Positions 13,408 through 27,483 of a DNA stretch of 64,000 nt are shown in pieces. The notes below the pieces were generated by a model that was not told the origin of the DNA, did no database searches, and was given only the letters and a program-made list of their open reading frames with translations. Origin of the DNA: an uncultured Flavobacteriaceae bacterium. Lineage in GTDB: Bacteria > Bacteroidota > Bacteroidia > Flavobacteriales > Flavobacteriaceae. The stretch is taken from the NCBI GenBank assembly GCA_964451785.1, contig CAYVJG010000012.1, positions 5,620-69,619 on the forward strand. The letters are read 5' to 3'. Position 1 is the stretch's first letter; every line of letters begins with the position of its first letter. Both the position numbers and the translations under genes were made by a program.

Positions 13408-15063
13408 ATGAAAAAATCAATTTATATTATTTTATTAAGCGTTTTTCTATTTAGCGCTTGTGATATTGAACGTCATCCCTATGATTCAGTGGTGACCGAA
13501 GACTTGTTAAGTACTGAAGAGGGGTTACAAGCGGCTACGCTCGGTAATTACGCCATTCTTAAAGGCCCTGTTGACAGCGATGGTTGGGCGGCTGTTTTAC
13601 ACAGAATTGTAGAATATGCCGGAGATAATGTGTCGCTGAGTGGCGCGACTACAGATCAACTGTACTATTTTTATAACTATAAGAATATTAAAAATAACGG
13701 TAGATCAAATTCATTCTGGAATTTGTCTTATAAGGCTATAGTTGGCGCTAATAAAGTTATCGAACTTGTTGACGAAGGCGTTTCTGCCGAAAACGATCAG
13801 TTAATCGGTGAAAACTATTATTTAAGAGCTTTGATTTACTTCCAAATAGTCAATGTGTACGGTCGTCAATATGCGCAAGATCCTAATGCGCTAGGGGTAC
13901 CACTTAAATTGACTTCAGATATTACTGACCTTCCTGATCGCAATACGGTTGGTGAAGTGTATGAGCAAGTGGTTAAAGACCTTAAAAAAGCAGAATCTTT
14001 AATGAGTATTGACAAAGGCCCTGCTTTTGCTTCTAAACCGGCTGCTCAAGCATTGTTGTCACGGGTTTATTTGTATATGGAAGAAAATCAGTTGGCTATT
14101 GATTATGCCAATAAGGTGATCGAATCTGGTAAATACTCATTAGTGCCTACCACTCAATTTGGGGATTATATTAAAATGGAACCTAAAAATAATCCGGAAA
14201 CTATTTTCGCCATTAAATACGAAAAAGAATCAGATTATGGCAGTGGCTATTATACTGTAGGTTCATTCTATGCGCAGATTGAAGGTGTAGGCTGGGGCGA
14301 AATGTACGCGTCTAGTTCTTACCTCAACTTGATTAATCAACATCCTGAAGATGTGCGTAAAGAATTTATAGATCCACAATATTTGTTAGATGATAACGGC
14401 AACAAAATTCCTGCAGTTTACTGGGTTGACGAAGATTATAACTATGTGTTTAAACGCACCACTACGCAAAACGGCAATTTGTATTTTGACGATAATGGCA
14501 CCCAACGTCAAGTGGTGACTGAGTCACAAACCGGAATGGCTGATAAGTACTACTTTATCAATGCAGATGGCGATAAAACCTATGTCACTAAAGGTTATGA
14601 TATTGATAAACGCAATGGTTATCCTAAATTTTACATCTTAAAATGCTCATTACAACAAGATGTACCACAATTGTGGTCGCCAGTGATTTCACGTTTAGGC
14701 GAATTGTACCTCAATCGCGCAGAGGCTTATGCTAAGTTGGGTAACGCAGCAGCAGCTTTAGAAGATGTTAATCGCATTAGAACGCGTGCCGGTATTCCTA
14801 CTTATACTTCTGCAGCTGATTTTCCTACCGGAATGGATATTTTAGATATCGTCTTGCAAGAACGTCATCTAGAAATGGCTTGGGAAGGTCAACGCAAATT
14901 TGATATTTTCCGCAATGGACTTACTTTAGATCGCCATTATCCGGGTTCTCATCTCAATGGAAATTCTCCTTATTATGAAGTTACTCCTCAGGATAATCGC
15001 ACAATCTTGTTTATTCCGGAACAACAAATGGAGGCTCAACCTTCTTTACAACAAAATCCTTAA
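13408..15063 (+). CDS. SusD/RagB-family nutrient-binding lipoprotein
   Basis: 551 aa with lipoprotein leader LFSAC. It sits immediately after SusC and has a TPR-like SusD C-terminal region (LYLNRAEAYAKLGN, ERHLEMAWEGQRKFD). Confidence 0.92.
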   Translation: MKKSIYIILLSVFLFSACDIERHPYDSVVTEDLLSTEEGLQAATLGNYAILKGPVDSDGWAAVLHRIVEYAGDNVSLSGATTDQLYYFYNYKNIKNNGRSNSFWNLSYKAIVGANKVIELVDEGVSAENDQLIGENYYLRALIYFQIVNVYGRQYAQDPNALGVPLKLTSDITDLPDRNTVGEVYEQVVKDLKKAESLMSIDKGPAFASKPAAQALLSRVYLYMEENQLAIDYANKVIESGKYSLVPTTQFGDYIKMEPKNNPETIFAIKYEKESDYGSGYYTVGSFYAQIEGVGWGEMYASSSYLNLINQHPEDVRKEFIDPQYLLDDNGNKIPAVYWVDEDYNYVFKRTTTQNGNLYFDDNGTQRQVVTESQTGMADKYYFINADGDKTYVTKGYDIDKRNGYPKFYILKCSLQQDVPQLWSPVISRLGELYLNRAEAYAKLGNAAAALEDVNRIRTRAGIPTYTSAADFPTGMDILDIVLQERHLEMAWEGQRKFDIFRNGLTLDRHYPGSHLNGNSPYYEVTPQDNRTILFIPEQQMEAQPSLQQNP

Positions 15064-15094
15064 GCTTTTGAATTGACTGCTTAATGTTATAAAA

Positions 15095-15126
15095 GGGAAC
15101 ACTTGCTAAAAGTTGTTCCCTTTTTT
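15095..15126 (+). terminator. Rho-independent terminator after susD
   Basis: Hairpin gggaaca..tgttccc followed by tttttt. Confidence 0.75.
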
Positions 15127-15335
15127 AGTAACCAAGGTTTCGGAGTTAGTTTACTTTGATCTTTAGTATTGAACTACTTCGCAGTTCTGTAAGATGCGGC
15201 AATCCCAGTGCCCCGAGTTTTGCACTCGGGATTAATCAAATTCAATTTTTTAGGGATACTACCATTTTTTAAAAGCAGAATCCTTTATATTGGTCTAATT
15301 TGATACTTTTGTAAACTCTAATTTTTCTGTTCTAA

Positions 15336-17327
15336 ATGATAAAAAAATCTACCATAGATCGTGTTTTTGAAGCTGCTCGCGTAGAGGAAGTCATCGGTGA
15401 TTATGTCAGTCTCAAACGTTCTGGTAGTAATTTTAAAGGCTTAAGTCCGTTTACTGATGAGCGTACGCCGAGTTTTATGGTGTCGCCGGCAAAGCAGATT
15501 TGGAAAGATTTTTCGAGTGGAAAAGGCGGGAGCGTCGTCACATTTTTGATGGAGCACGAGCACTTTAGTTATCCGGAAGCCATTAAGCATTTGGCTAAAA
15601 AATACGGCATCGAAATAGAAGAAACCGAGCAGACAGAGGAAGAAAAAAAGGAAGCTGACGAGCGCGAAAGCATGTATCTGGTCAATACATTTGCTAATAC
15701 ATATTTCCAAAATCAATTGCAGCGAACAGAAGTCGGTAAGGCCATAGGACTGAGTTATTTTAAAGAACGCGGCTTTACAGATGAAACCCTTAAACAATTT
15801 GAACTCGGTTATTCTCCAGACCAATGGGAAGCCTTTACTCAAACCGCTTTAGGAAAAGGCTATAAATTAGAATTTCTAGAAAAAACAGGTCTAACAGTAG
15901 TGAAATCCGGGAGCGATGGCTTGCCAGCCAAGCAATTTGACCGCTTTAAAGGACGCGTGATGTTTCCTATTCACTCCATGTCGGGGCGCGTTTTAGGTTT
16001 TGGCGGACGTATTTTAGACAATACTAAAAAAGCCGCTAAATACCTCAACTCACCTGAAAGTGAAGTCTATCACAAAAGCAAAGTGCTTTATGGCTTATAC
16101 CAAGCTAAGAAAAGTATTGCAAAAGAAGACGTGTGTTATTTGGTTGAGGGCTATGCGGATGTTATCCAATTTCACCAAAGCGGGATTACCAATACTGTGG
16201 CCTCTTCAGGGACGGCTTTAACACCTGACCAGATTCGACTCATTCGTCGGTTAACTAAAAATATTATTGTGTTATATGACGGTGATGCTGCCGGAGCGCG
16301 GGCATCTTTGCGCGGTATAGACTTGATTTTGGAGCAAGATATGCACGTTAAGGTTTGTTCGTTTCCAGAAGGCGATGATCCCGATAGCTTTGCAAAAAAG
16401 CATACCACTGACGAAATTAAAGAATTCTTGGCCTCTAATGCTAAAGATTTTATCCATTATAAGGCTGAAATCTTAATGGCTGATGCACAAAATGACCCGG
16501 TTAAAAAAGCAGGAGTGATTCGTGATATGATGCATAGCATTGCAAAAATTCCTGATGATATTCAGCAAGAACTCTATTTGCGCGCGTGTGCTAAATTGAT
16601 GGATATTTCTGAAAATGCCTTGTATAGCACTTTAGCCCAAATTAAAGCTAAAGAAGAAAAAGATAATCGTCGTCAGAACAAATCTGATGCGGCTGCTAAA
16701 CCACTGCAGGTTGTCAAAAATGATGCTGTAGATACTCGAAAAATTGATCCTCAAGAAAAGTTAGAATACAATATCATTAAGCTGTTACTGCTTTATGGGG
16801 ATATGGAAGGGAAGTTTGTAGATTATCTTTTAAAAAAGAACGAAGACGAAGAACTGGAGTTAGAAGAATCTGTTGAGCATATCAAAGTTTACGAAAAAAT
16901 ATATAAAGATATTCAAGAAGATGAATCTGAATTTGCTAATGAAAAGTTTAGAGTTCTTTATAGTTTCGTTATAAAGGAATATGAACAAAAGCAGAAGTTA
17001 GTTGTCAAAGAGCTTATTCATGATGCAGACCCTGAAATAACAGCAGATTTGACGTCTATATTGATGCAAAACGATCACTATAAACTGCACGATTGGGAGC
17101 GCCATGGCATCTTTGTCAAAGATATTTCGCAGTTAGAAGAAAAAGAAGTGATACAAACTATTCTTAATCTGCGCACACGTCTTTTAAAGAAAAAAGTGGA
17201 TGCTTTACTGCAAGAGATGATGAATGATCGCGAAAACCAACATGTAGACATTCTTGAAGTTATCAGAGATTATAAAAAGCTACAGGTTTTAATTGCCCAT
17301 AAATTAGACAATGTCATTCGTCCGTAA
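15336..17327 (+). CDS. dnaG: DNA primase
   Basis: 663 aa. The N-terminus is CHC2 zinc-finger-like (GLSPFTDERTPSFMVSP). The Toprim region contains EGYADV and LYDGDAAG. Confidence 0.93.
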   Translation: MIKKSTIDRVFEAARVEEVIGDYVSLKRSGSNFKGLSPFTDERTPSFMVSPAKQIWKDFSSGKGGSVVTFLMEHEHFSYPEAIKHLAKKYGIEIEETEQTEEEKKEADERESMYLVNTFANTYFQNQLQRTEVGKAIGLSYFKERGFTDETLKQFELGYSPDQWEAFTQTALGKGYKLEFLEKTGLTVVKSGSDGLPAKQFDRFKGRVMFPIHSMSGRVLGFGGRILDNTKKAAKYLNSPESEVYHKSKVLYGLYQAKKSIAKEDVCYLVEGYADVIQFHQSGITNTVASSGTALTPDQIRLIRRLTKNIIVLYDGDAAGARASLRGIDLILEQDMHVKVCSFPEGDDPDSFAKKHTTDEIKEFLASNAKDFIHYKAEILMADAQNDPVKKAGVIRDMMHSIAKIPDDIQQELYLRACAKLMDISENALYSTLAQIKAKEEKDNRRQNKSDAAAKPLQVVKNDAVDTRKIDPQEKLEYNIIKLLLLYGDMEGKFVDYLLKKNEDEELELEESVEHIKVYEKIYKDIQEDESEFANEKFRVLYSFVIKEYEQKQKLVVKELIHDADPEITADLTSILMQNDHYKLHDWERHGIFVKDISQLEEKEVIQTILNLRTRLLKKKVDALLQEMMNDRENQHVDILEVIRDYKKLQVLIAHKLDNVIRP

Positions 17328-17338
17328 AAACGGCTCAT

Positions 17339-17381
17339 AAAAAAACTCCCTATAAATTATTGAATTTACAGAGAGTTTTGT
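17339..17381. terminator. Hairpin between convergent dnaG and the DUF5606-like gene
   Basis: aactccctataaatt-attg-aatttacagagagtt, a 15 bp stem with 2 mismatches, flanked by an A-run and ttt. Confidence 0.5.
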
Positions 17382-17398
17382 GTGGTTAGCTTATAAAA

Positions 17399-17842
17399 CT
17401 AAGCCTTCTCTTCAGCAACTGTTTCTTCAACAGCTTCTTCTTCAGTTTCTTCTGATTTAGTGAAAGACGTAATGCCGTTTTCAATTAATAAGTTGTACCA
17501 TTGGAACACTTTTTTGATATCGCTACCATATACGCGATCAGCATCGTATTCTGGAAGGATTTCTGAAAAATAGGCTTCTAGTTCAGCTTTAGAACTTTTG
17601 TGGCTGATAGATTTTTTACCCTCTTCCTTAGCGTAAATTTTTTCAAAAACTACAGGTAAAGGCATTTCGTCATCAACAGTATAAATAGCAATTTCACTGA
17701 GCATGCTCACATCGTGACGCAAGTTAACGGCTAATTTTTTGCCATTGATTAACGATTCAGCAACAAATCCTGCACGGGTTTGCGCTTTTAACTCATATAA
17801 ACCCGGTTTTCCGGAAATCGAAAGAATTTTTTCTAAGCTCAT
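17399..17842 (-). CDS. Conserved Bacteroidota protein (DUF5606-like)
   Basis: The ORF track gives 154 aa. The likely real start is MSLEKILSISGKPGLYEL (7 codons in). The C-terminal tail is acidic. The family name is recalled, not verified. Confidence 0.6.
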   Translation of the reverse strand: MSLEKILSISGKPGLYELKAQTRAGFVAESLINGKKLAVNLRHDVSMLSEIAIYTVDDEMPLPVVFEKIYAKEEGKKSISHKSSKAELEAYFSEILPEYDADRVYGSDIKKVFQWYNLLIENGITSFTKSEETEEEAVEETVAEEKA

Positions 17843-17894
17843 TTTATTTTTTTTGAGGAGCAAATATGCAATCTCTGCTGGATATTACAAAATA

Positions 17895-18485
17895 TCAACG
17901 CGTTTTTTTTGCTTTTGGAAAACGCATGCGATAATCAATATTGATATTGCCCTTTGCTATGTTTTTTAATTTATTATTAATCAAGCGCTTCTTTAAACTC
18001 GATAACTTGTCAGTAAATAAAATCCCTTCAATATGATCGTATTCGTGTTGTACAACGCGCGCTAAAAGACCATCAATAGTATCGACATGGTGCTCAAAAT
18101 TTTCGTCGTAATAATCGATGGTGATTTCTTCAGGTCTGAAGACATCTTCATGAATACCGGGAATACTCAAGCAGCCTTCCATAAAGCCCCATTCTTCTCC
18201 TTGACGATGTGTGATTTTAGGATTGATAAATACTTTTTTAGACTGTTTTAAAATCTCTTTTTCTTCATCATCTAAGTCATCATCCTCAGCAAAAGGAGAG
18301 GGGTCAACAACAAATAAACGTATAGAACGACCAATTTGTGGCGCTGCAATACCAACACCACTGGCATTATACATGGTTTCAAACATATTTTCAATAAGTT
18401 CTTGAAGCCCATCGTAGTCTTTGCTGATGTCTTGTGCTTTTTTCTTTAATACGGTATCTCCGTATGCGACGATTGGTAAAATCAT
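17895..18485 (-). CDS. def: Peptide deformylase
   Basis: Motifs GVGIAAPQIG, EGCLSIPG and HEYDHIEG. The start was chosen at MILPIVAYGD rather than the upstream ATG of the track ORF. Confidence 0.93.
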   Translation of the reverse strand: MILPIVAYGDTVLKKKAQDISKDYDGLQELIENMFETMYNASGVGIAAPQIGRSIRLFVVDPSPFAEDDDLDDEEKEILKQSKKVFINPKITHRQGEEWGFMEGCLSIPGIHEDVFRPEEITIDYYDENFEHHVDTIDGLLARVVQHEYDHIEGILFTDKLSSLKKRLINNKLKNIAKGNINIDYRMRFPKAKKTR

Positions 18486-18683
18486 AATTTTCAATCTTGT
18501 GGATTGCAAATGTAAGAAATTGTCTATTTTTAGAATACATTTGCTACTGATTTATAGTTGTTTTATCAATAATGTCCAAAACGGTTTTCGAAAATCTCTG
18601 TAAAACACTTGTATATTTTGTTCTTGAACGATTTTAGTATTGAAAAGATTGTTTTTAAAAGTTTTACTTCTTTTGGCCTATCG

Positions 18684-18811
18684 AAAATTTATCGTAAAAT
18701 TTGAAGTGAAAATACCGTAAAATTTTAGGCTGTTCGAGCTGGATGTATTTTTTATATTGAGCTGAATTTCAGTAGCGAGTTCCTAAAATTTAGGTATTGA
18801 ACGATAAATTT
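18684..18811. repeat. ~128 bp imperfect palindromic element (R5) in the def-ruvX spacer
   Basis: Inverted pairs are aaatttatcgt/acgataaattt and aataccgtaaaattttagg/cctaaaatttaggtatt. It shares the ataccgta motif with family R3. Confidence 0.6.
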
Positions 18812-18906
18812 AGATAAAGTTTCGTCAGCCTAGATTTTTTTGGTTCGTTTTTTCATCAATGGAAAAAATGAACAACATAAGCATTTAAGACAGAATTGTT
18901 GTTTTA

Positions 18907-19311
18907 TCAATACAAGTAGCTTTGTAAGATGACAGTGGCACTAATCTCATCGATTAAAGCTTTGTTGCGACGCTTCTTTTTGCCCAATCCACTGTCTATC
19001 ATCGTCTGAAAAGCTATTTTAGAACTGTAGCGCTCATCGACACGCTTGTAAGGCATCTCAGGGAATTTAGCGGTAAAAACTTTTAAAAATTCTTGAATAT
19101 ACACCTCGCTTTGTGATGGGCTGCCGTCTTTTTGCTTAGGTTCACCAACTAATACAAGTTCAACCGACTCTTTAGCAAAGTAATCTGTTAAAAATGGAAT
19201 CAATTCTGGCGTGTGGACGGTGGTTAACCCCGATGCAATAATCTTCATCTCATCTGTAACCGCTATTCCACAGCGTTTCGTGCCGTAATCTATTGCTAAA
19301 ATCCTTGCCAT
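18907..19311 (-). CDS. ruvX: Holliday junction resolvase-like protein RuvX/YqgF
   Basis: MARILAIDYGTKRCGIAVTD is the typical YqgF N-terminus. The track ORF's 43-codon upstream extension runs into repeat R3 and is rejected. Confidence 0.88.
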   Translation of the reverse strand: MARILAIDYGTKRCGIAVTDEMKIIASGLTTVHTPELIPFLTDYFAKESVELVLVGEPKQKDGSPSQSEVYIQEFLKVFTAKFPEMPYKRVDERYSSKIAFQTMIDSGLGKKKRRNKALIDEISATVILQSYLY

Positions 19312-19408
19312 ATTTTTATTTTGCACAAAGATAAAGTTTATTCTTAAACTGCTTTTGATTTTTCTGTTTTGGTTTTGGAGAGTGAGCGTTTCAGTTGCCA
19401 TAAGGAGT

Positions 19409-19541
19409 CTAATACCGTATGGATAAATTAAATAGTCCAATTTCGACTTTGTCTCATTGTACTAGTAATTTATATACCACGATATTATACCTATAAAGAA
19501 TATTCTAAATCGGACTAAAAAAATAATTCTAACGGGTATAA
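19409..19541 (+). mobile_element. R3 MITE/REP-like element, copy 1 (133 bp)
   Basis: Begins ctaataccgtatgg and ends gggtataa. Nearly the same sequence occurs at 54455-54586, 25687-25819 (reverse) and 41667-41786. Confidence 0.8.
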
Positions 19542-19731
19542 TATTCTAGGGTAAAGAATAGGTGTAAGAATTATTTATGATAATATTCCCGTCCGTTTCC
19601 TGTGTTAAAAGTGGGGCTTTGGGTTAGAAAGGGAAAGCGACGGTGTTTCCAACGATTGCGATTTTTCTTTTCCCCAGCCCTAAAGGTTGTGAAAATCATG
19701 AAACTTTGTTTTTGCTGAAGGTTATTAGAAT

Positions 19732-19789
19732 AATTTTACATATCTTTAACAAACGCAAATCAACCGTGTTACTTTTAACAAAACCCTAA
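19732..19789 (+). repeat. Left 58 bp direct repeat bracketing the RHS island
   Basis: aattttacatatctttaacaaaCgcaaatcaaccgt..aacaaaaccctaa matches 23338-23395 with 5 mismatches. It is in frame with the downstream RHS ORF. Confidence 0.85.
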
Positions 19790-19818
19790 GGGGGAAACAC
19801 TATGACGAATTCAACCGC

Positions 19819-21711
19819 TTGCGCGAGGCCAATGGCTTTTACATCGCCCCTAATGACACCCCGCAGAATCAATTGCTGCGGCAGCAATACCGCACCAGTA
19901 TGAGCTATAATGACAATCAAGACATTAGCGTGAAATACCAAGACCACCACCAAGCCGTGGTGGGCAACTTGACGCCGCCTCAGTCGAGCGCGCTGCAGCA
20001 GGTTTTTCCGACAAGCTACATCTTGGTATATGACGATTATGCCACGGGCAGCTTTTCGGCGGGCAACTACACCTATGTGCAGCCACACGCCCCGCGCACC
20101 CTGGTGGTGAAACCAACTGTTCCTACGGCGAGCAACGACCCGCGCATTAGTCATAAAAAACTGCAGTATGACGCTAATGGAAATTTGACAAGCGTTTCTC
20201 AGAACATTACAACTCCCGGAGCGCCATTAGCCGACACGCAGCTGCTTTTGCGCCAGTATCGCTGGGACGAAGAAAACCGATTGCGCGCTGTTGACTTGCA
20301 GCCTGAAAACCCAACTAACCAGCCCAAAATTGCGGCTTACACTTATGATGCAAGCGGGCAACGCGTGGTGCGCTATGTGTCTGAACAGTTGAAAGCTTAT
20401 TTTAGTGGTCACCCCTCCGGGCGGGCACACCAACTGGAAATAGCGGTGTATCCCAGTGGTTTTATCTCGGCAAAAGCCTTGACTGAACGGGGGATACACA
20501 AGGAATTTATGACCTATACCAAGCATTTTTACATCGGCAGTCAACGCGTGGCTAGCGTGAAGGGCGGCAGCAATGGTGTGGGGCGGTATTTGAGCAACAG
20601 TAGCTTGGAAACGGCAAGCTCCTATTTTGGAATTTTGCAAGAAAAGCGACAGACCGCCACCCAAGCCTTAGCCGCCGATTATGCGGCTTTCAACAAAACC
20701 CTAACCCTGCCACAGCCGTTTGCGCTCTCGCCCATTACGTCAAGCTCCTACCGACAACAGCGCCACACCTACTGGTTTCACCCCGACCACCTCGGCAGCT
20801 CGAGTTATATTTCAAATATAAACGGGAGGATTTCACAGCATATAGAATACTTCCCTTTCGGCGAAACCTTGGTTGAAGAACACAAAAACTCCAATAACTC
20901 GCCTTATAAATTTAATGGCAAAATGCTAGACGCTGAAACCGGGAATTATTACTACGGCGCAAGATATTACAACCCTAAATGGAGCCTGTGGCTGAGCGTT
21001 GACCCGCTGGCGGAAAACTACCCCGGCTGGTCACCGTATAATTATACCTTGTATAATCCGGTGCGGTTTGTGGACCCGGATGGGCGGAGTGTGGCGATGC
21101 CGGACAACTGGTATAAGAACAAAGAAACAGGTGAAGTAATTTGGATTGATGGGGATAAGGATTATTACGGTTACGAAAACTTAGGATTTGATCATCATGA
21201 GGTTTTTCGTAAAAACCCTGATGATTTGTGGTTGACCCGTGTACAGTATGATGGAGATACAAAAACAAAATCGGTTAACCGTCAAGTGGTCAAACATTAT
21301 GAATCGAGTACAATGCGCAAAGGATACAATTTTGTAATGGACAACTTTGTCGGTTCTACGATGGCAGGGGTACAAGAATTGGGTTGGATAGTCGTTGGGA
21401 CAGGAATTGCCGTAAAAGCCCAGTTTAAAGAAGTGATGAATGGCGGCGATGGTTTGGGCATACACATTGATATGGCTATGCCCATTTATGTCATTCAAAA
21501 CGGGAAACTTATGAAAATGGATTTAGCTGAATATTCCTTTGGGGAATTAGTGAGTAATGGGTTTTCGGGACTGACTGCATTGGCTGGAGGGACAAGTACT
21601 GTGTTTAAAACAGGAATAAAAGAATGGTATGGTGAAGCTATTGATTATTTGGCAGATAAAACCTTAGGATATTATATTGGCGAAGGATTGGGAAAATTAA
21701 AGGGGAAGTAA
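19819..21711 (+). CDS. 5'-truncated RHS/YD-repeat core fragment with an unrecognised C-terminal toxin tip
   Basis: YD repeats are present (QYDANGNLTS, YTYDASGQRV). The RHS-associated core end is YYYGARYYNPKWSLWLSVDPL..YNPVRFVDPDGR at ~20950-21087. About 200 aa of lower-GC tip follow. The frame is open from 19750 and the track start is a TTG. No N-terminal RHS part lies upstream. Confidence 0.85.
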   Translation: MREANGFYIAPNDTPQNQLLRQQYRTSMSYNDNQDISVKYQDHHQAVVGNLTPPQSSALQQVFPTSYILVYDDYATGSFSAGNYTYVQPHAPRTLVVKPTVPTASNDPRISHKKLQYDANGNLTSVSQNITTPGAPLADTQLLLRQYRWDEENRLRAVDLQPENPTNQPKIAAYTYDASGQRVVRYVSEQLKAYFSGHPSGRAHQLEIAVYPSGFISAKALTERGIHKEFMTYTKHFYIGSQRVASVKGGSNGVGRYLSNSSLETASSYFGILQEKRQTATQALAADYAAFNKTLTLPQPFALSPITSSSYRQQRHTYWFHPDHLGSSSYISNINGRISQHIEYFPFGETLVEEHKNSNNSPYKFNGKMLDAETGNYYYGARYYNPKWSLWLSVDPLAENYPGWSPYNYTLYNPVRFVDPDGRSVAMPDNWYKNKETGEVIWIDGDKDYYGYENLGFDHHEVFRKNPDDLWLTRVQYDGDTKTKSVNRQVVKHYESSTMRKGYNFVMDNFVGSTMAGVQELGWIVVGTGIAVKAQFKEVMNGGDGLGIHIDMAMPIYVIQNGKLMKMDLAEYSFGELVSNGFSGLTALAGGTSTVFKTGIKEWYGEAIDYLADKTLGYYIGEGLGKLKGK

Positions 21712-21899
21712 TGGGATTACCTGGTTTAATAGGGATGTGTATCAGGTTTATATTTGTATTTCATTGCAGTTTCAAAAAGAAAAATGAGGCAACAAAAAAA
21801 GATATGGATGCAGAGAAAGCCAAGGATGGTCAGGTCGGATTAATTGGCTTAATTGTAATTATTATAGCAATGGGGGTTACTTATGAATTGATGCACTAA
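21711..21899 (+). CDS. 62 aa two-TM membrane protein, candidate cognate immunity protein
   Basis: Its ATG overlaps the toxin stop (gTAATGg). Hydrophobic segments are GLPGLIGMCIRFIFVF and VGLIGLIVIIIAMGV, joined by a charged loop. A paralogue sits at 22140-22331. Confidence 0.6.
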   Translation: MGLPGLIGMCIRFIFVFHCSFKKKNEATKKDMDAEKAKDGQVGLIGLIVIIIAMGVTYELMH

Positions 21900-21939
21900 G
21901 TAGTTAAGGTTATTTTACAGTATTCAAAACGGGAAACTA

Positions 21940-22140
21940 ATGAAAATGGATTTAGCCGAATATTCTTTTGGGGAGTTAGTGAGTAATGGGTTTTCTGGGA
22001 TAACAACTTTGGCCGGAGGTGTTGGTTCTGTACTGAAATCAGGAATTAAAGGAAAATTTGGAGATATATTAGATTTTTCATCTGAGAAAGTCACAGATTA
22101 TTATATTGGAGAGAGATTAAAGGAGTTAAAAGAGAGATAA
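21940..22140 (+). CDS. Orphan copy of the toxin C-terminal tail (last ~70 aa)
   Basis: The frame is open from 21904. IQNGKLMKMDLAEYSFGELVSNGFSG is identical to the main toxin at 21493 onward, then diverges. There is no RHS core upstream. Confidence 0.6.
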   Translation: MKMDLAEYSFGELVSNGFSGITTLAGGVGSVLKSGIKGKFGDILDFSSEKVTDYYIGERLKELKER

Positions 22141-22331
22141 TGGGGTTGCCAGGTTTAGTAGGAATAGTTATAAGATTTATTTTTGTATTTCGCTTTAGTC
22201 TAAAAAAGATGGACAAAGCATCGAGGGAAAATTCTGACAGCGAAAAACAAAAAGATGCACAAGTAGGTCTAATAACCATTTTCGTCTTTATAATCGGCGT
22301 GATAATTTGGGGTGCGATATGGTATCCTTGA
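22140..22331 (+). CDS. 63 aa two-TM membrane protein, second immunity paralogue
   Basis: It has the same TAATG overlap with the orphan tail. MGLPGLVGIVIRFIFVF..VGLITIFVFIIGVII parallels 21711-21899. Confidence 0.6.
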   Translation: MGLPGLVGIVIRFIFVFRFSLKKMDKASRENSDSEKQKDAQVGLITIFVFIIGVIIWGAIWYP

Positions 22332-22334
22332 TTA

Positions 22335-22757
22335 TTGTTTCACGGAATTTACATAGACGGAATAGGCAGCACTAATATGGGTGTTATAACAGGTTCAGGC
22401 GCGAGCTCTCGAATAGGCTACGACGAGCTGACAGGTTTTGGAAGCGAAGCCGGCAGTAGCCGATTGGGGAAACTACTTCAGTCGGTGGCGTTATTTTTTC
22501 AAGCGTTGATGCCGGGAGAGGATAACACAATGACCACTACCGTTGTGAAACCGGGGAGGACAAATCAGCTTCCGGCGGAAAAAAAGGTGAAAATGATAAA
22601 ATTTAAAGTGGTGGAAATTAACAATAAAACGTTTTACCCATCAGGTGCGTATGACTATAGAGAGTTCGATACACTAGTCCCTATAAATGGTGTCGAAAAT
22701 TTTAAAATAATGACAAGTAAGGATAGAGATTCAGTCTATAGATATCCGAAATATTAA
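22335..22757 (+). CDS. Hypothetical protein; possible further orphan toxin fragment
   Basis: The frame opens immediately after the stop of the preceding gene. The track start is TTG and the first ATG is at 22377. The 5' half is G+C-richer (Gly/Ser-rich) and the 3' half AT-rich. I recognise no motif. Confidence 0.4.
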   Translation: MFHGIYIDGIGSTNMGVITGSGASSRIGYDELTGFGSEAGSSRLGKLLQSVALFFQALMPGEDNTMTTTVVKPGRTNQLPAEKKVKMIKFKVVEINNKTFYPSGAYDYREFDTLVPINGVENFKIMTSKDRDSVYRYPKY

Positions 22758-22764
22758 TAACAAT

Positions 22765-23271
22765 ATGAAAAAAATATTAATAACAATCATATGCATAGGG
22801 GTATTGTTTTCTTGTAACAATACTAAGCACTCTTCTCATAATAAGGAAAATATAAAACCTTTAAAAGATACACTATGGCTTGAATTTACCCCTGAAAATA
22901 ATGATTCACTAAAGGTTGCTGTAAATTATTATTTTGGGATAGACACATTGGCTTCCCAAGAAGTTATGGATAGAGCTACTATTTTTTACTTTACTTTTAG
23001 AGAAATATCGATTGATGAATTAAAGAAAATTATTTTCTTAAAGTATAGTGAAAAACGGAGAAATGAAGTCAATGAAAATAAAATCAGCCAAATTCATATA
23101 CCTGTTAATAAGCAGTATAGTTTCTATGTGCAATTAGGAACTAAAAAAGTTCATCATTTAACAGGAATGGTTGTTGACAATTTTTTAATTAAAATTAAGG
23201 ACTCTATAAAAAGCGATACCGTAGTTGTAAGAAAAGTAGGAACGTCTATAGAACAGTACTTTAAGTTTTAA
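22765..23271 (+). CDS. Small lipoprotein; candidate immunity partner of 22335-22757
   Basis: 168 aa with leader ICIGVLFSC. It starts 8 nt after the preceding stop. It is AT-rich with no recognisable family. Confidence 0.45.
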   Translation: MKKILITIICIGVLFSCNNTKHSSHNKENIKPLKDTLWLEFTPENNDSLKVAVNYYFGIDTLASQEVMDRATIFYFTFREISIDELKKIIFLKYSEKRRNEVNENKISQIHIPVNKQYSFYVQLGTKKVHHLTGMVVDNFLIKIKDSIKSDTVVVRKVGTSIEQYFKF

Positions 23272-23337
23272 ATTGAGTTAAGTCAGTTCTAATAGCCTAT
23301 TGGCAGGTAAATCTTACACATAATTGCATAGCAAAAC

Positions 23338-23420
23338 AATTTTACATATCTTTAACAAATGCAAATCAACCGTCTCGCTTTCAACAAAACCCTAACCCTG
23401 CCACAGCCGTTTGCGCTCTC
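23338..23420 (+). repeat. Right 58 bp direct repeat plus an exact 44 bp copy of internal RHS sequence
   Basis: 23338-23395 matches 19732-19789. 23377-23420 is identical to 20686-20729 (gctttcaacaaaaccctaaccctgccacagccgtttgcgctctc). It contains an ATG at 23359 heading a 25-codon mini-ORF. Confidence 0.85.
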
Positions 23421-23500
23421 TTGCTTTCTTATATAAATCCTCTTTATAAAGGCTTGTAGTTTGGTGGAGTTCCTTATATTTATCGCAAATTTAGAAGGAC

Positions 23501-24319
23501 ATGGAAGAATTAAAAAATAAGATTTTAGCAGCTTGGGATAATCGAGAGCTCTTAAAAGAAGAAGCAACTAAAGCAGCCATTAAAGAAGTGGTTAACTTAT
23601 TAGATGCAGGTAAATTGCGCTGTGCTGAACCAGATGCTAATGGCGGATGGCAAGTTAACGAATGGGTTAAAAAAGGCGTTGTGTTGTATTTTCCTATTCA
23701 AGAAATGAAAACCCTCGAAGCTGGTATCTTTGAATATCACGACAAAATGCCACTAAAATCAGGCTATAAAGAAAAAGGCATTCGTGTGGTGCCTAACGCT
23801 GTAGCTCGCCATGGCGCTTATATTTCAAAAGGAGTCATCATGATGCCTAGTTATGTCAACATCGGCGCTTATGTTGATGAAGGTACTATGGTTGACACCT
23901 GGGCAACAGTGGGAAGTTGTGCTCAAATTGGCAAAAATGTGCACCTTTCGGGTGGCGTGGGCATTGGTGGCGTGCTCGAACCTCTACAAGCGGCTCCTGT
24001 GATTATTGAAGACAACGCATTTATCGGTTCGCGTTGTATTGTAGTTGAAGGGGCACGCGTTGAAAAAGAAGCAGTACTAGGGGCTAATGTGGTGTTGACG
24101 GGATCAACTAAAATTATCGATGTCACTGGCGATGAGCCTAAAATTATGAAAGGAGTAGTGCCAGCGCGTAGTGTGGTGATTCCTGGAAGCTATACCAAAT
24201 CTTTTCCGGCTGGTGATTTTCAAGTGCCTTGTGCCTTGATTATCGGAAAACGCAAGGAGAGTACTAATAAAAAAACATCGCTTAACGATGCACTTCGTGA
24301 ATACAATGTGTCTGCTTAA
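23501..24319 (+). CDS. dapD: 2,3,4,5-tetrahydropyridine-2,6-dicarboxylate N-succinyltransferase
   Basis: 272 aa with hexapeptide-repeat region (GAYVDEGTMVDTWATVGSCAQIGKNVHLSGGVGIGG) and a typical DapD N-terminus. Confidence 0.9.
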   Translation: MEELKNKILAAWDNRELLKEEATKAAIKEVVNLLDAGKLRCAEPDANGGWQVNEWVKKGVVLYFPIQEMKTLEAGIFEYHDKMPLKSGYKEKGIRVVPNAVARHGAYISKGVIMMPSYVNIGAYVDEGTMVDTWATVGSCAQIGKNVHLSGGVGIGGVLEPLQAAPVIIEDNAFIGSRCIVVEGARVEKEAVLGANVVLTGSTKIIDVTGDEPKIMKGVVPARSVVIPGSYTKSFPAGDFQVPCALIIGKRKESTNKKTSLNDALREYNVSA

Positions 24320-24361
24320 TACGGAAATGATTTTTGGTCTATTTTGAATGTCACTTCCGTA
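24320..24361. repeat. Minimal 42 bp R4 element (the two R4 termini joined head to head)
   Basis: tacggaaatgattttt-gg-tctattttgaatgtcacttccgta. It begins on the nucleotide after the dapD stop. Confidence 0.7.
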
Positions 24362-24433
24362 TAAGCTTTAATAAATAACTTTTTAAAGGACTTGCCTCTC
24401 TTTGCGACAAGTTCTTTTTTTAGCACTTTAATT

Positions 24434-24787
24434 ATGGAAAATACAGTTTTTTATTTGTCGTCATGTTCAACCTGTAAACGTATTTTAGACAGTGTAAATC
24501 TACCTGAAGATTTTGCGCAACAAGATATCAAAAATCAGCCGATGACCGCTGCTCAGCTCGATGAACTCAAAGCTTTGTCAGGAAGTTATGAAGCGCTGTT
24601 TAGTAAGCGTGCTCAGTTGTATCGCCAACGCAACTTAAAAGCGCAAAATTTGACAGAATCAGATTATAGAACTTTGCTTTTAGAGCACTATACATTTTTG
24701 AAACGACCGGTATTTGTTATCGATGGACAGGTTTACATAGGTAATTCTAAAAAGATTGTCGCTCAAGTGCAAGAAGCCTTGCACTAA
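24434..24787 (+). CDS. ArsC/Spx-family (arsenate reductase-like) protein
   Basis: MENTVFYLSSCSTCKRIL has the N-terminal Cys motif. The start is set at the ATG at 24434 rather than the upstream TTG of the track ORF. Confidence 0.75.
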   Translation: MENTVFYLSSCSTCKRILDSVNLPEDFAQQDIKNQPMTAAQLDELKALSGSYEALFSKRAQLYRQRNLKAQNLTESDYRTLLLEHYTFLKRPVFVIDGQVYIGNSKKIVAQVQEALH

Positions 24788-24805
24788 ATTCCAAAAATGT
24801 AAACC

Positions 24806-24839
24806 CATAAAAAAACCGCTTTTCAATAGAGAAGCGGTT
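24806..24839 (-). terminator. Terminator hairpin between convergent genes (T-run on the minus strand)
   Basis: aaccgcttttc-aata-gagaagcggtt, with aaaaaaa on the plus side, which reads as a T-run for the minus-strand M48 gene. Confidence 0.7.
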
Positions 24840-24859
24840 AATTAATCGACAAGAAAATA

Positions 24860-25675
24860 TTAGCGTTTAAACTGGGTGACGCCAAATTTTCGAGCAGTAG
24901 CTTTTGCAGCATCTACCCAACCTTGAATGTTGTTAATGCGGGTTTGATTAGAGGGGTGAGTGCTCAAAAACTCAGGAGGTTGTTGTCCACCATTTTGACT
25001 CATACGCTGCCATAAACTGACTGCTACACTAGGGTCATAACCCGCTACAGCCATTAAATCTAGTCCCAATTTATCGGCTTGGGTTTCAAATTTTCTACTG
25101 TAAGGAAGGGTAACCCCTAGCTTAGTGCCAACGCCATAAGCCTTATTGAAAATTTCTCCGTATTCAGTGTTGCTTAAGGCCTCACTACCCACTTGACCAA
25201 CCATACCTTGAATTTGCTCTTGACTCATGCGGCGTTGCCCATGATTGAGTAAGGCATGTGATACTTCGTGCCCTAAAACTACGGCTAAGCCCGCTTCATC
25301 TTTGGTAATAGGTAGAATGCCGGTGTACACAACAATTTTTCCGCCAGGCATGCACCAGGCATTTACTTGGTTGCTCTTTACCAAGTGATATTCCCATTTA
25401 TAGTCTTTTAAATAACCTGCTTTGCCTTTGGCACGTAGTATTTTTTCAGCAGCTTCGGCTATTTTCTGCCCTACTTTTTTGACTAATGCCGCTTCAGGGG
25501 TGCCTGTTACAACTTGATTCTCCTCTAAAAAAGCATCATATTGACTGAAAGCCATAGGAAAAAGTTGTGAGTTTGGTACTAAAGCTAAGTTTTGTTTTCC
25601 TGTAAAAGGATTGACTTGACAAGCTTGCATGATGCCTATAACTAGCAAAGCTGTAATAATTTTTGAGGTTTTCAT
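24860..25675 (-). CDS. M48-family zinc metallopeptidase, lipoprotein
   Basis: 271 aa with leader VIGIMQAC and the HEVSH motif within VLGHEVSHALLNHG. Confidence 0.85.
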   Translation of the reverse strand: MKTSKIITALLVIGIMQACQVNPFTGKQNLALVPNSQLFPMAFSQYDAFLEENQVVTGTPEAALVKKVGQKIAEAAEKILRAKGKAGYLKDYKWEYHLVKSNQVNAWCMPGGKIVVYTGILPITKDEAGLAVVLGHEVSHALLNHGQRRMSQEQIQGMVGQVGSEALSNTEYGEIFNKAYGVGTKLGVTLPYSRKFETQADKLGLDLMAVAGYDPSVAVSLWQRMSQNGGQQPPEFLSTHPSNQTRINNIQGWVDAAKATARKFGVTQFKR

Positions 25676-25686
25676 GAGTTAAGATG

Positions 25687-25819
25687 TTATACCAATTAGA
25701 ATTATTTTTTAGTCCGATTTATAATATCTTTTGTAGGTATAATACCGTGGGCCATAAATTAACGAGTACGATGAGATAAAGTCGAAATTGGACTAGTTAA
25801 TTTATCCATACGGTATTAG
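25687..25819 (-). mobile_element. R3 MITE/REP-like element, copy 3 (reverse orientation)
   Basis: It is the reverse complement of the 19409-19541 family. Its ggtataa end lies 11 nt upstream of the M48 start codon. Confidence 0.8.
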
Positions 25820-26070
25820 TGCTGTATGTTACAAAATTATGATTTTTTATTGTAATTTTATTTTTCTTTCACTCAAAACCTCTTCTGAAGCGAACTCATT
25901 TTGGCGTGAATCTTGTAGGTTTAGTGTAGAGGGGCATGTAAAGTTTTATGTTGTTGGAGCTAAAATTGGATATATAAAATTCGGCTTTTATAGACCTTAT
26001 TAAAGGTGTATAATAACTGATATGCCACTTAGAATTTTGGGACAGTAATGTTTAATGAGAAGTATGGGTT

Positions 26071-26574
26071 ATGAAAACGAGATGGTGTTATATGATTGTA
26101 TTGCTTTTGATGTGGGGCTGTCAAGGAAATGCCCAGGAAAATAAAGATATGCCTAAATTTGCTGTACAAAAAACAGAACAGCAATGGCGAGCAGAACTCA
26201 CTCCTGAAGAATATCATATTTTGCGTGAAGCAGGTACTGAACCGCGATTTTCAAGTCCTATTTTAGATATTAAAGAAAAAGGTAAATTGGTTTGTGCCGC
26301 TTGTGGCAATGTGGTGTTTCTCAATCAATATCAATTTGAATCAGAATGCGGTTGGCCTAGTTTTGATCGCGCCGTAAAAGGAGCGGTGGTTTACCGAACT
26401 GATTACAAATTATTTTATCCGCGCACAGAAGTGTTATGCGCAAAATGCGGTAGTCATTTAGGACACTTGTTTAACGATGGTCCGCGTAAAACAACCGGTA
26501 AACGTTACTGTATCGATGGAGTAGCTTTAAACTTTATTGCTGATAAAAGCCCTATAAATAATAAGGAAAAATGA
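26071..26574 (+). CDS. msrB: Peptide-methionine (R)-S-oxide reductase with an N-terminal signal peptide (exported)
   Basis: 167 aa with leader MKTRWCYMIVLLLMWGC. It has two CxxC zinc motifs (CAAC, CAKC), CGWPSF, and the catalytic RYCIDG. Confidence 0.85.
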   Translation: MKTRWCYMIVLLLMWGCQGNAQENKDMPKFAVQKTEQQWRAELTPEEYHILREAGTEPRFSSPILDIKEKGKLVCAACGNVVFLNQYQFESECGWPSFDRAVKGAVVYRTDYKLFYPRTEVLCAKCGSHLGHLFNDGPRKTTGKRYCIDGVALNFIADKSPINNKEK

Positions 26575-26963
26575 AAAAATTTGCGATAGAAAAAACGGAA
26601 AGTGAATGGCGCAATCAGCTTTCTGAAGAACAATTTCACGTGTTGCGCGAAAAAGGAACTGAATATCCACATACCGGAAAGTACAATCTTCATTTTGAAG
26701 ATGGTACTTACGCTTGTGCCGGATGCGGTCAAGAATTGTTTGACAGTTCAACAAAATTTGAAAGTAGTTGTGGTTGGCCTAGTTTTGATAAAGGCCTTGA
26801 AGGTCGAGTGATCTTTAAACGCGATACGAGTTTTGGCATGCTGCGCACCGAAGTGCTCTGTGCAAACTGTGGTGGTCACTTAGGGCATGTATTTAATGAT
26901 GGTCCTACAGCTACAGGTGAGCGATTTTGTGTAAATTCGGCCAGTCTAACGTTTAATAAATAA
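26571..26963 (+). CDS. msrB: Peptide-methionine (R)-S-oxide reductase (cytoplasmic)
   Basis: 130 aa with no leader. Motifs are CAGC, CANC, CGWPSF and RFCVNS. It overlaps the upstream msrB by ATGA. Confidence 0.9.
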   Translation: MKKFAIEKTESEWRNQLSEEQFHVLREKGTEYPHTGKYNLHFEDGTYACAGCGQELFDSSTKFESSCGWPSFDKGLEGRVIFKRDTSFGMLRTEVLCANCGGHLGHVFNDGPTATGERFCVNSASLTFNK

Positions 26964-26985
26964 TCTAACCTAAAAATCATTTGTT

Positions 26986-27483
26986 ATGAAGAAAATCATG
27001 TTATGCCTTTTGGTATGTGTCGCTCTGTGGAGCTGTGAAGGGGAAACTGGACCTGTAGGCCCTCCGGGACCTGCAATTGTCGGTCAAACGTTTGAGTTTG
27101 ATGGCATTAATTTTCAATATGAACCCGATGTTAATTTGTGGTCTGCATTAATCGATGTCCCAACAGATATTGAAGTGTTAGAATCAGATGCTATTTTGGT
27201 TTATCGTATAGAAGACGGAGGAAATGGTCCGCTTTATAGCCTTATTCCACAAAACTTTTTTACCCCTAATGGCACTATTTCTTATGTGTATAACCACACG
27301 CCTGTAGATGTAGAACTATTGATTGATGGTAATTTTAATATGGCTAATCTCGATCCTGTTTTTACAGATAATCAAGCCTTCCGTTTTGTAGTTGTGCCAT
27401 CTGATTTTGCTAAAACGTACAAAGACCAAATCCAAAGTTTTGACGATTTGCAAGCTTTAGATATTCAATTGCAACAATTTTAA
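26986..27483 (+). CDS. Hypothetical lipoprotein
   Basis: 165 aa with leader CVALWSC and a short collagen-like run GPVGPPGPA. Confidence 0.55.
   Translation: MKKIMLCLLVCVALWSCEGETGPVGPPGPAIVGQTFEFDGINFQYEPDVNLWSALIDVPTDIEVLESDAILVYRIEDGGNGPLYSLIPQNFFTPNGTISYVYNHTPVDVELLIDGNFNMANLDPVFTDNQAFRFVVVPSDFAKTYKDQIQSFDDLQALDIQLQQF

Follow-up and report, generated by a model that had tools for sequence, protein, structure and literature searches.

Orphan toxin-immunity modules and C-terminal displacement of toxins are already established, and the general phenomenon is ordinary. C-terminal displacement in Rhs loci was described by Poole 2011 (PMC3150448) and Koskiniemi 2014 (PMC3967940), and by Jackson 2009 as cited in PMC5361080. 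Orphan rhs-CT/rhsI modules consist of a 5'-truncated toxin fragment and an immunity gene located downstream of another toxin-immunity pair, and they retain a stretch of homology to the upstream gene (PMC3150448; PMC3967940). If recombination occurred there, the orphan tip would become joined to the main gene and the first immunity gene would be lost. Activation of an orphan was demonstrated in Salmonella, where the homology comprised 522 bp at 95% identity (PMC3967940). Here we analyzed a stretch of 64,000 nucleotides, referred to as the window, from an uncultured Flavobacteriaceae bacterium (assembly GCA_964451785.1, contig CAYVJG010000012.1, positions 5,620 to 69,619 of the forward strand). 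The window carries a 429-bp repeat composed of a toxin tail and a small two-transmembrane (two-TM) open reading frame (ORF). This repeat is probably an orphan, displaced toxin-tail/immunity cassette located behind the cognate pair of a 5'-truncated rhs gene fragment.

The arrangement in the window resembles that of the orphan rhs-CT/rhsI modules. A toxin fragment without its 5' end lies downstream of another toxin-immunity pair, 22 nt past the stop codon of the first immunity gene. It begins with 78 nt of homology to the upstream toxin at 92% identity, continues at about 60% identity and is followed by a 63-aa homologue of the first immunity protein. Recombination at the shared stretch would have the same outcome as in those modules. 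However, the homology of the classic Rhs orphans lies in the RHS core, while in the window it lies inside the toxin domain and covers 26 codons. It is also shorter and less similar than in Salmonella. Unlike in the classic cases, the upstream gene is a fragment that also lacks a start, and the genome contains no full-length rhs gene.

Type VI secretion system (T6SS) loci of Vibrio cholerae offer a second precedent, in which sequential effector displacement leaves immunity arrays with effector 3' ends (Kirchberger 2017, PMC5361080). As in the window, the incoming module displaces the effector and keeps its immunity gene and, in places, the effector 3' end. Homology-facilitated illegitimate recombination was proposed for these arrays and the old immunity genes were regarded as kept for protection, both of which agree with our reading of the window. 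The window differs in effector class and delivery context, and it holds only two homologous alleles, in an RHS fragment between ruvX and dapD.

Organization of the 429-bp repeat

The original prediction described a repeat of about 429 bp composed of a toxin tail and a coupled two-TM ORF, and pairwise alignment confirmed it. The sequence at 21493-21921 recurs at 21922-22331 and aligned without gaps, 429 bp being the period and copy 2 running to at least 22331. The repeat families D3 and D4 of the window were also 429 apart. The pair was not reported by Tandem Repeats Finder because its overall identity (~70%) is below the threshold of that program. The 5' boundary is sharp, with 8 of 12 nt mismatched just ahead of 21493 and 21922. 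The similarity was not confined to low-complexity sequence, a point on which the predicted repeat had depended, and in the protein family of other organisms no block is more conserved than the shared peptide.

All coding features of the island described here are on the forward strand (+). Each unit begins with a block of 26 codons, referred to as the handle, which is located at 21493-21570 in copy 1 and at 21922-21999 in copy 2. The two copies encode the same peptide (IQNGKLMKMDLAEYSFGELVSNGFSG). Their DNA matched at 72 of 78 nt (92% identity), all six differences fell on third codon positions and the longest perfect run was 20 nt. Past the handle, the identity per 30-nt window drops from 0.90-0.97 to 0.5-0.7. 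The variable tails (21571-21711 and 22000-22140) each comprise 46 codons plus the stop, are 46% identical as proteins and, in the case of tail 1, are predicted to form two helices. The repeated toxin segment is exactly 72 codons long, where about 70 had been estimated, and the expected pattern of about 26 identical residues followed by diverging tails was recovered.

Both tails are closed by TAATG, in which the toxin stop overlaps the start of the next ORF. Immunity candidate 1 (21711-21899) encodes 62 aa and immunity candidate 2 (22140-22331) encodes 63 aa, and the two proteins are 49% identical. Both contain two hydrophobic segments (~1-21 and 38-62) with a charged loop between them. The junction between immunity candidate 1 and the orphan (21900-21921) comprises 22 nt, and at 21922 the sequence abruptly becomes homologous to the main toxin. 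The frame of the orphan fragment is open from 21904 and contains a coincidental ATG at 21940.

Displacement or duplication of the cassette

The repeat had been interpreted as a tandem duplication, and this interpretation is weakened by the relationships of unit 2. Its immunity protein is 78% identical to P0023, encoded at L033, but only 49% identical to that of unit 1. At the DNA level unit 2 was 72-75% identical to L033 and L015, compared with 67-70% for unit 1, and the nearest relatives of tail 2 are the orphan tails on these two metagenome contigs. Synonymous divergence (dS) between units 1 and 2 was 0.56 in the handle versus 1.75 in the rest of the tail. Outside the handle dS was 1.3-1.75, with synonymous sites close to saturation, and it was saturated in the immunity genes. 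Among codons encoding the same amino acid, synonymous changes were present in 6 of 24 in the handle and in 28 of 51 elsewhere (Fisher p=0.024). Thus, the copies are not each other's closest relatives and their dS is not uniform, unlike the products of a recent tandem duplication. It is the pattern expected of balanced tail/immunity alleles that are old and lie within a recombining constant region. Since unit 2 is nearer to foreign alleles and dS is heterogeneous, displacement was preferred over local duplication.

A displacement of this type, and a recent one, could be followed directly at other loci. Over 623 nt, the orphan at L017 shares 98.4% identity with the full toxin plus immunity gene of L030/31, and the homology starts abruptly right past the stop of an unrelated gene. 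L017 and L030 therefore seem to represent a recent displacement caught in both states. The presence of the same cassette at 98.4% identity in a full toxin and in a truncated orphan indicates that tail-immunity cassettes move. The orphans start at different points of the C-terminal toxin domain (CT), namely at CT ~108-116 (L014, L016 and L017), 137 (window) and ~150 (L015 and L033). This scatter suggests that orphans are remnants and not designed genes.

The origin of the repeat may be explained by C-terminal displacement, or homology-facilitated illegitimate recombination, for which there are precedents (PMC5361080, PMC3150448, PMC3967940). In the recombination that brought in a second allele, the 5' side would have been joined by homology and the 3' side illegitimately. 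The resident tail 2 and immunity 2 would have been moved downstream by this event, with only 26 handle codons left on the orphan. The tail and the following two-TM protein of 58-68 aa would be inherited and exchanged jointly, with crossovers in or near the handle.

The alternative that survives best is an in-situ tandem duplication of the 429 bp by unequal crossing-over or slippage, followed by diversifying selection. The gap-free 429-bp register and the same organization of both units, including the TAATG coupling, are in agreement with it, and the immunity proteins of unit 1, unit 2 and L033 form one clade (84/89 support). However, the identity and dS values given above conflict with it, L015 and L033 contain unit-2-like orphans without a unit 1 upstream, and a comparable displacement is visible in L017 versus L030. 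We therefore consider this duplication unlikely.

Joint inheritance of tail and immunity gene is supported by their co-divergence. The pairwise identities of tails and immunity proteins were correlated among nine pairs (r=0.70, Mantel p=1e-4) and also among seven independent lineages (r=0.59, Mantel p=0.004), while the handle and the immunity proteins of the same seven lineages were not (r=-0.03, p=0.58). The immunity gene thus appears to share its history with the tail and not with the neighbouring handle block. The parallel divergence that had been predicted from the two units of the window was in accordance with this result. Together with the mobility seen in L017/L030, the scatter of the truncation points and the position of the break at the conserved/variable boundary of the family, the co-divergence supports the predicted tail plus immunity gene as one exchangeable specificity unit, as far as can be judged from sequence comparison.

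The orphan loci at L015 (1380-1540) and L033 (200-330) come from one metagenome sample and have the same truncation point. The last ~60 nt of their non-coding upstream flank are almost identical, whereas identity falls to 76-80% in the tail and immunity DNA, with a ratio of nonsynonymous to synonymous divergence (dN/dS) of ~0.3-0.4. The cassette thus changes more quickly than its flank, whether by evolution or by replacement.

A further alternative is that the orphan is a free-standing small gene, a 66-aa ORF from the ATG at 21940 forming, for example, an addiction-type or bacteriocin-like pair with immunity candidate 2. The 66-aa ORF is intact and has an ATG, the orphans of L014, L016 and L017 also open with Met codons, and the orphan tails of L015 and L033 evolved at dN/dS ~0.4 and not ~1. 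Moreover, orphan Rhs elements of Salmonella can act as toxin-antitoxin modules (PMC7043789). However, the main toxin has the identical sequence around this ATG, homologues do not conserve the codon (K/R-L/F-I/L-K-T/S-D), and the varying truncation points are what remnants would be expected to show. The loose likeness of the handle to a double-glycine leader also fails, since the GG position reads SG, ST, NA or SA, and the handle was accordingly rejected as such a leader. A free-standing gene is thus improbable, and the displaced cassette remains the preferred interpretation.

Toxin tip and putative immunity proteins

The C-terminal toxin domain (21085-21708) comprises 208 aa past DPDG and includes an N-terminal beta domain (CT 6-75), a moderately hydrophobic helical middle, the handle and the tail. 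No family was assigned to this tip in Pfam, NCBIfam or PADLOC. No PDB match was obtained by sequence or profile (E below 0.1) or by fold (Foldseek). A single-protein scan of genome contigs detected no relatives and a word-based homologue search returned nothing, while 19 matches, 17 of them genuine, were obtained among 1.84 billion representative proteins. In 400 genomes of the order, the N-terminal beta domain was found alone, without handle or tail. AlphaFold modelled residues 8-71 with a predicted local distance difference test (pLDDT) score above 90 and the rest below 50.

The family alignment placed the main boundary of conservation at the same position as the divergence of the two units. 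Among six full tips, mean pairwise identity was highest in the handle (0.51), intermediate in the N-domain (0.39) and the middle (0.38), and lowest in the tail (0.13). In view of the handle and tail values, the point where units 1 and 2 diverge coincides with a family-wide conserved/variable boundary. The handle block, which is hairpin-like, reads ..GGDG...V.MEMP.YEF.NGKL.K.DL..YS..E..SNG.S in the family alignment. The tail is predicted as two helices at low confidence (AlphaFold) and carries small-residue [GAS]xxx[GAS]xxx[GAS] runs.

The N-terminal beta domain (window 21100-21309) has the motif DWYKNKETGEVIW..GY..LG..Y.GDTK. It was also observed joined to unrelated C-terminal parts in P0005, P0010, P0011, P0013/P0016 and P0018/P0019. 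It occurs in a few genomes of the order as well and had no PDB fold match. This domain may be a shared adaptor or pre-toxin domain.

The tip is probably a membrane-acting toxin, to judge from the lack of an enzymatic family match, the predicted helices with small-residue repeats and the two-TM partner. It would act at the cytoplasmic membrane, where the two-TM proteins would neutralise it by recognising the tail. A comparable logic is known from Tse5-CT of Pseudomonas aeruginosa, an Rhs pore-former with the two-TM immunity protein Tsi5 (PMC9637101, PMC10684867). Both systems have an Rhs-borne tip without an enzymatic signature, predicted membrane-inserting helices and a small two-TM immunity protein. 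The likeness is one of logic only, because Tse5-CT displayed no detectable sequence or fold similarity to the window tip. No PDB chain was matched at E below 0.1 in the 2026 PDB, which presumably includes the 2023 Tse5 entry.

The small two-TM ORFs also had no family in Pfam, NCBIfam or PADLOC. A profile built from five such ORFs detected 11 clusters in 5.8 billion proteins, all of 58-78 aa and with the common pattern MxxxPxxGxxLRFIFVYRFN...K...G..hydrophobic. A member of this family lies within 25 nt of the tail in both window units and in all 10 distinct cassettes outside the window for which downstream DNA was present, which extends the predicted coupling of tail and two-TM ORF beyond the window.

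The family was found in three states. In the first, a full tip on an RHS core is followed by the immunity homologue (L030-32, L125 and L126); in L038 the full tip is cut off from the RHS core by a frameshift and then followed by the immunity homologue. In the second, a 5'-truncated tail and the small ORF follow an unrelated gene or non-RHS DNA (L014, L016, L017, L015 and L033-35). In the third, the small ORF stands alone (L024-28 and L036/37) and no tail remnant was detected by tblastn. At L014 (116-613), the orphan tail and the immunity ORF form one fused 165-aa frame (P0008) with no stop between them.

Constant adjacency to the tail, combined with occurrence as solo genes, is what characterizes toxin-immunity pairs and orphan immunity genes, and we infer that the small two-TM ORFs are immunity proteins. 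They might instead be accessory factors of the toxin, such as membrane-insertion or stabilising partners, and their lack of a known family leaves room for this. An accessory factor would be pointless at L024-28 and L036/37, where no toxin remnant exists, and the placement and coupling right after the toxin stop fit toxin-immunity pairs. An accessory role is therefore still less probable than a free-standing orphan gene.

The solo copies are reminiscent of the orphan-immunity clusters of Bacteroidales known as acquired interbacterial defence (AID) and recombinase-associated AID (rAID) clusters (bioRxiv 10.1101/471110; 10.1101/2025.05.03.651265). In these clusters, as in the window, immunity genes persist although no cognate toxin can be delivered, and homologous copies stand side by side. 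Solo copies of the immunity family of the window also occur on other Bacteroidota contigs, one of which (L024) carries an RteC gene ~4 kb upstream of the small ORF. Unlike in AID/rAID clusters, no recombinase was found among ORFs of at least 40 aa in window 14000-27000, no conserved inter-gene repeats were seen within the island and the toxin remnants are still attached. A question raised for rAID clusters is whether homologous immunity genes become stacked through duplication or through acquisition on repeated occasions, and the sequences of the window favour acquisition.

The general phenomenon being known, the new elements are a rare tip family (17 relatives), an immunity family (11 clusters) and an exchange point inside the toxin domain. 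They provide a compact system in which recognition of a membrane-acting toxin by a small membrane immunity protein could be studied. It is a tentative possibility that a second tier of polymorphism is nested in the Rhs toxin domain. The C-terminal ~46-aa helical hairpin would be the part recognised by immunity and would be exchanged with the ~60-aa two-TM protein as a mini-cassette of ~350-430 bp, demarcated by the handle. The handle (..MPIYxFxNGKLxKxDLxxYSxGExxSNGxS) would then take the crossover/demarcation role that VENN or DPxGL motifs have one level up, and toxin-immunity specificity could be mapped to two short helices.

RHS fragment, handle and island context

The gene upstream of the repeat, which had been taken as the main toxin, is a 5'-truncated RHS-repeat toxin gene fragment (19819-21711). 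It encodes 630 aa from a TTG within a 653-aa open frame that has no in-frame ATG at its start. The RHS core (TIGR03696) was detected at residues 344-422, ending in VDPDG, with 71.7 bits in the protein search and 75.3 bits in the genome search against a cut-off of 32.5 bits. Only 422 residues precede the tip, and a full YD-repeat shell with an N-terminal plug/delivery domain and a translation start was not present. The RHS-core-bearing open frames of relatives reach about 1,150-3,960 aa, and the shell of Tse5 alone comprises residues 48-1168 (PMC9637101).

The RHS core of the fragment is the sole one in the 2.87-Mb, 99.8%-complete genome, and neither the tip and handle nor the immunity genes and flanking repeats were found at any other place in it. 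The DnaG protein of this organism had its closest match, at 70% identity, in an uncultured metagenome-assembled genome. The T6SS sheath gene VipB/TssC was not found in the genome, with this one marker family used as the test. Since the assembly has neither a full-length RHS gene nor a T6SS sheath gene, the toxin pieces appear undeliverable.

These features limit what the handle could do. The handle had been proposed as an obvious site of homologous recombination for swapping tails, but its 78 nt at 92% identity and 20-nt perfect run compare poorly with the Salmonella homology, and that role is weakened. Orphan activation through a functional main gene has no counterpart here, with no full-length RHS gene in the genome. 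All that a crossover in the handle could produce is a fusion of tail 2 with the start-less RHS fragment. Since this fragment is start-less, contains the sole RHS core and is accompanied by no T6SS sheath gene, a tail swap cannot arm a deliverable toxin here. Present-day recombination at the handle is therefore probably of no effect in this genome. Most likely, the island is a relic or a defence island in which two immunity genes would protect against the two allelic toxins of neighbours.

Several points weigh against the interpretation as a displaced, membrane-directed cassette in a relic or defence island. The dS contrast depends on 26 codons (p=0.024), and co-divergence of tail and immunity gene is also expected from tight linkage alone. 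Another origin, though an unlikely one, would be an ancient duplication after which the L015/L033 lineages lost unit 1. The 630-aa fragment could be expressed from the promoter-like left repeat with a TTG start. The helical part of the tip was modelled at pLDDT below 50 and is no more than moderately hydrophobic (15-residue hydropathy maximum of 1.44), and PDB comparison by sequence, profile and fold revealed no similarity to Tse5 or any solved structure. Finally, the genome is a draft of 83 contigs and the T6SS test covered one marker family. An assembly artefact joining two strain variants of one tail-immunity locus in tandem would fit a draft of this kind, but it is the least probable explanation of all, because the longest exact match between the units (20 nt) is too short to mislead the usual assemblers, the 22-nt junction is unique and comparable orphan arrangements occur in independent assemblies.

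A pair of 61-nt direct repeats brackets the island (19729-23420), which is located between ruvX and dapD. The left repeat (19729-19789) is 90% identical to 23335-23395, and the RHS reading frame opens inside it. The right repeat region (23335-23420) consists of the repeat at 23335-23395 and an overlapping segment of 44 nt (23377-23420), which is 100% identical to RHS coding DNA at 20686-20729, 2.7 kb upstream. The shared sequence TT(T/C)AACAAAACCCTAA reads FNKTL in the RHS frame at both 19774-19788 and 20689-20703. The 61-nt repeat was found neither in genus relatives nor elsewhere in the genome. The repeats and the 44-nt match point to past recombination or deletion between parts of the island.

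A third, unrelated pair (22335-23271) is located at the distal end of the island. It consists of a start-less 140-aa ORF (ORF3, 22335-22757), which opens 3 nt past the stop of immunity candidate 2, and an ORF encoding a lipoprotein-like protein of 168 aa. Neither had a family in Pfam, NCBIfam or PADLOC, and the lipoprotein had no homologues in the 5.8-billion-protein set. This pair is probably another displaced tip with its immunity gene. ORF3 as a third, diverged handle was ruled out by hhalign against the CT family (probability 0.4%). Its kinship to the third ORF of L033, suggested by a shared FDTLVP, was also ruled out, as BLASTP detected the hexapeptide alone.

On the + strand of 19400-23520, the Bacteroidota -7 box (TAnnTTTG) was matched exactly only at 21749 and 22178, which are homologous positions inside the two immunity genes. 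These boxes were rejected as promoters, since they lie inside the conserved RFIFVF coding motif and occur at background frequency, and are probably a by-product of coding.

A start-less 3' fragment of an RHS gene (526 aa) was also observed in a different genus of the same family at L003 (G008:C4, 1501-3530). It is 46% identical to residues 103-441 of the window fragment. The locus has an HExxH-containing tip and a 159-aa lipoprotein, and is located directly past the gene for cytochrome oxidase subunit I. The placement of short RHS 3' fragments among housekeeping genes may be recurrent in this family.

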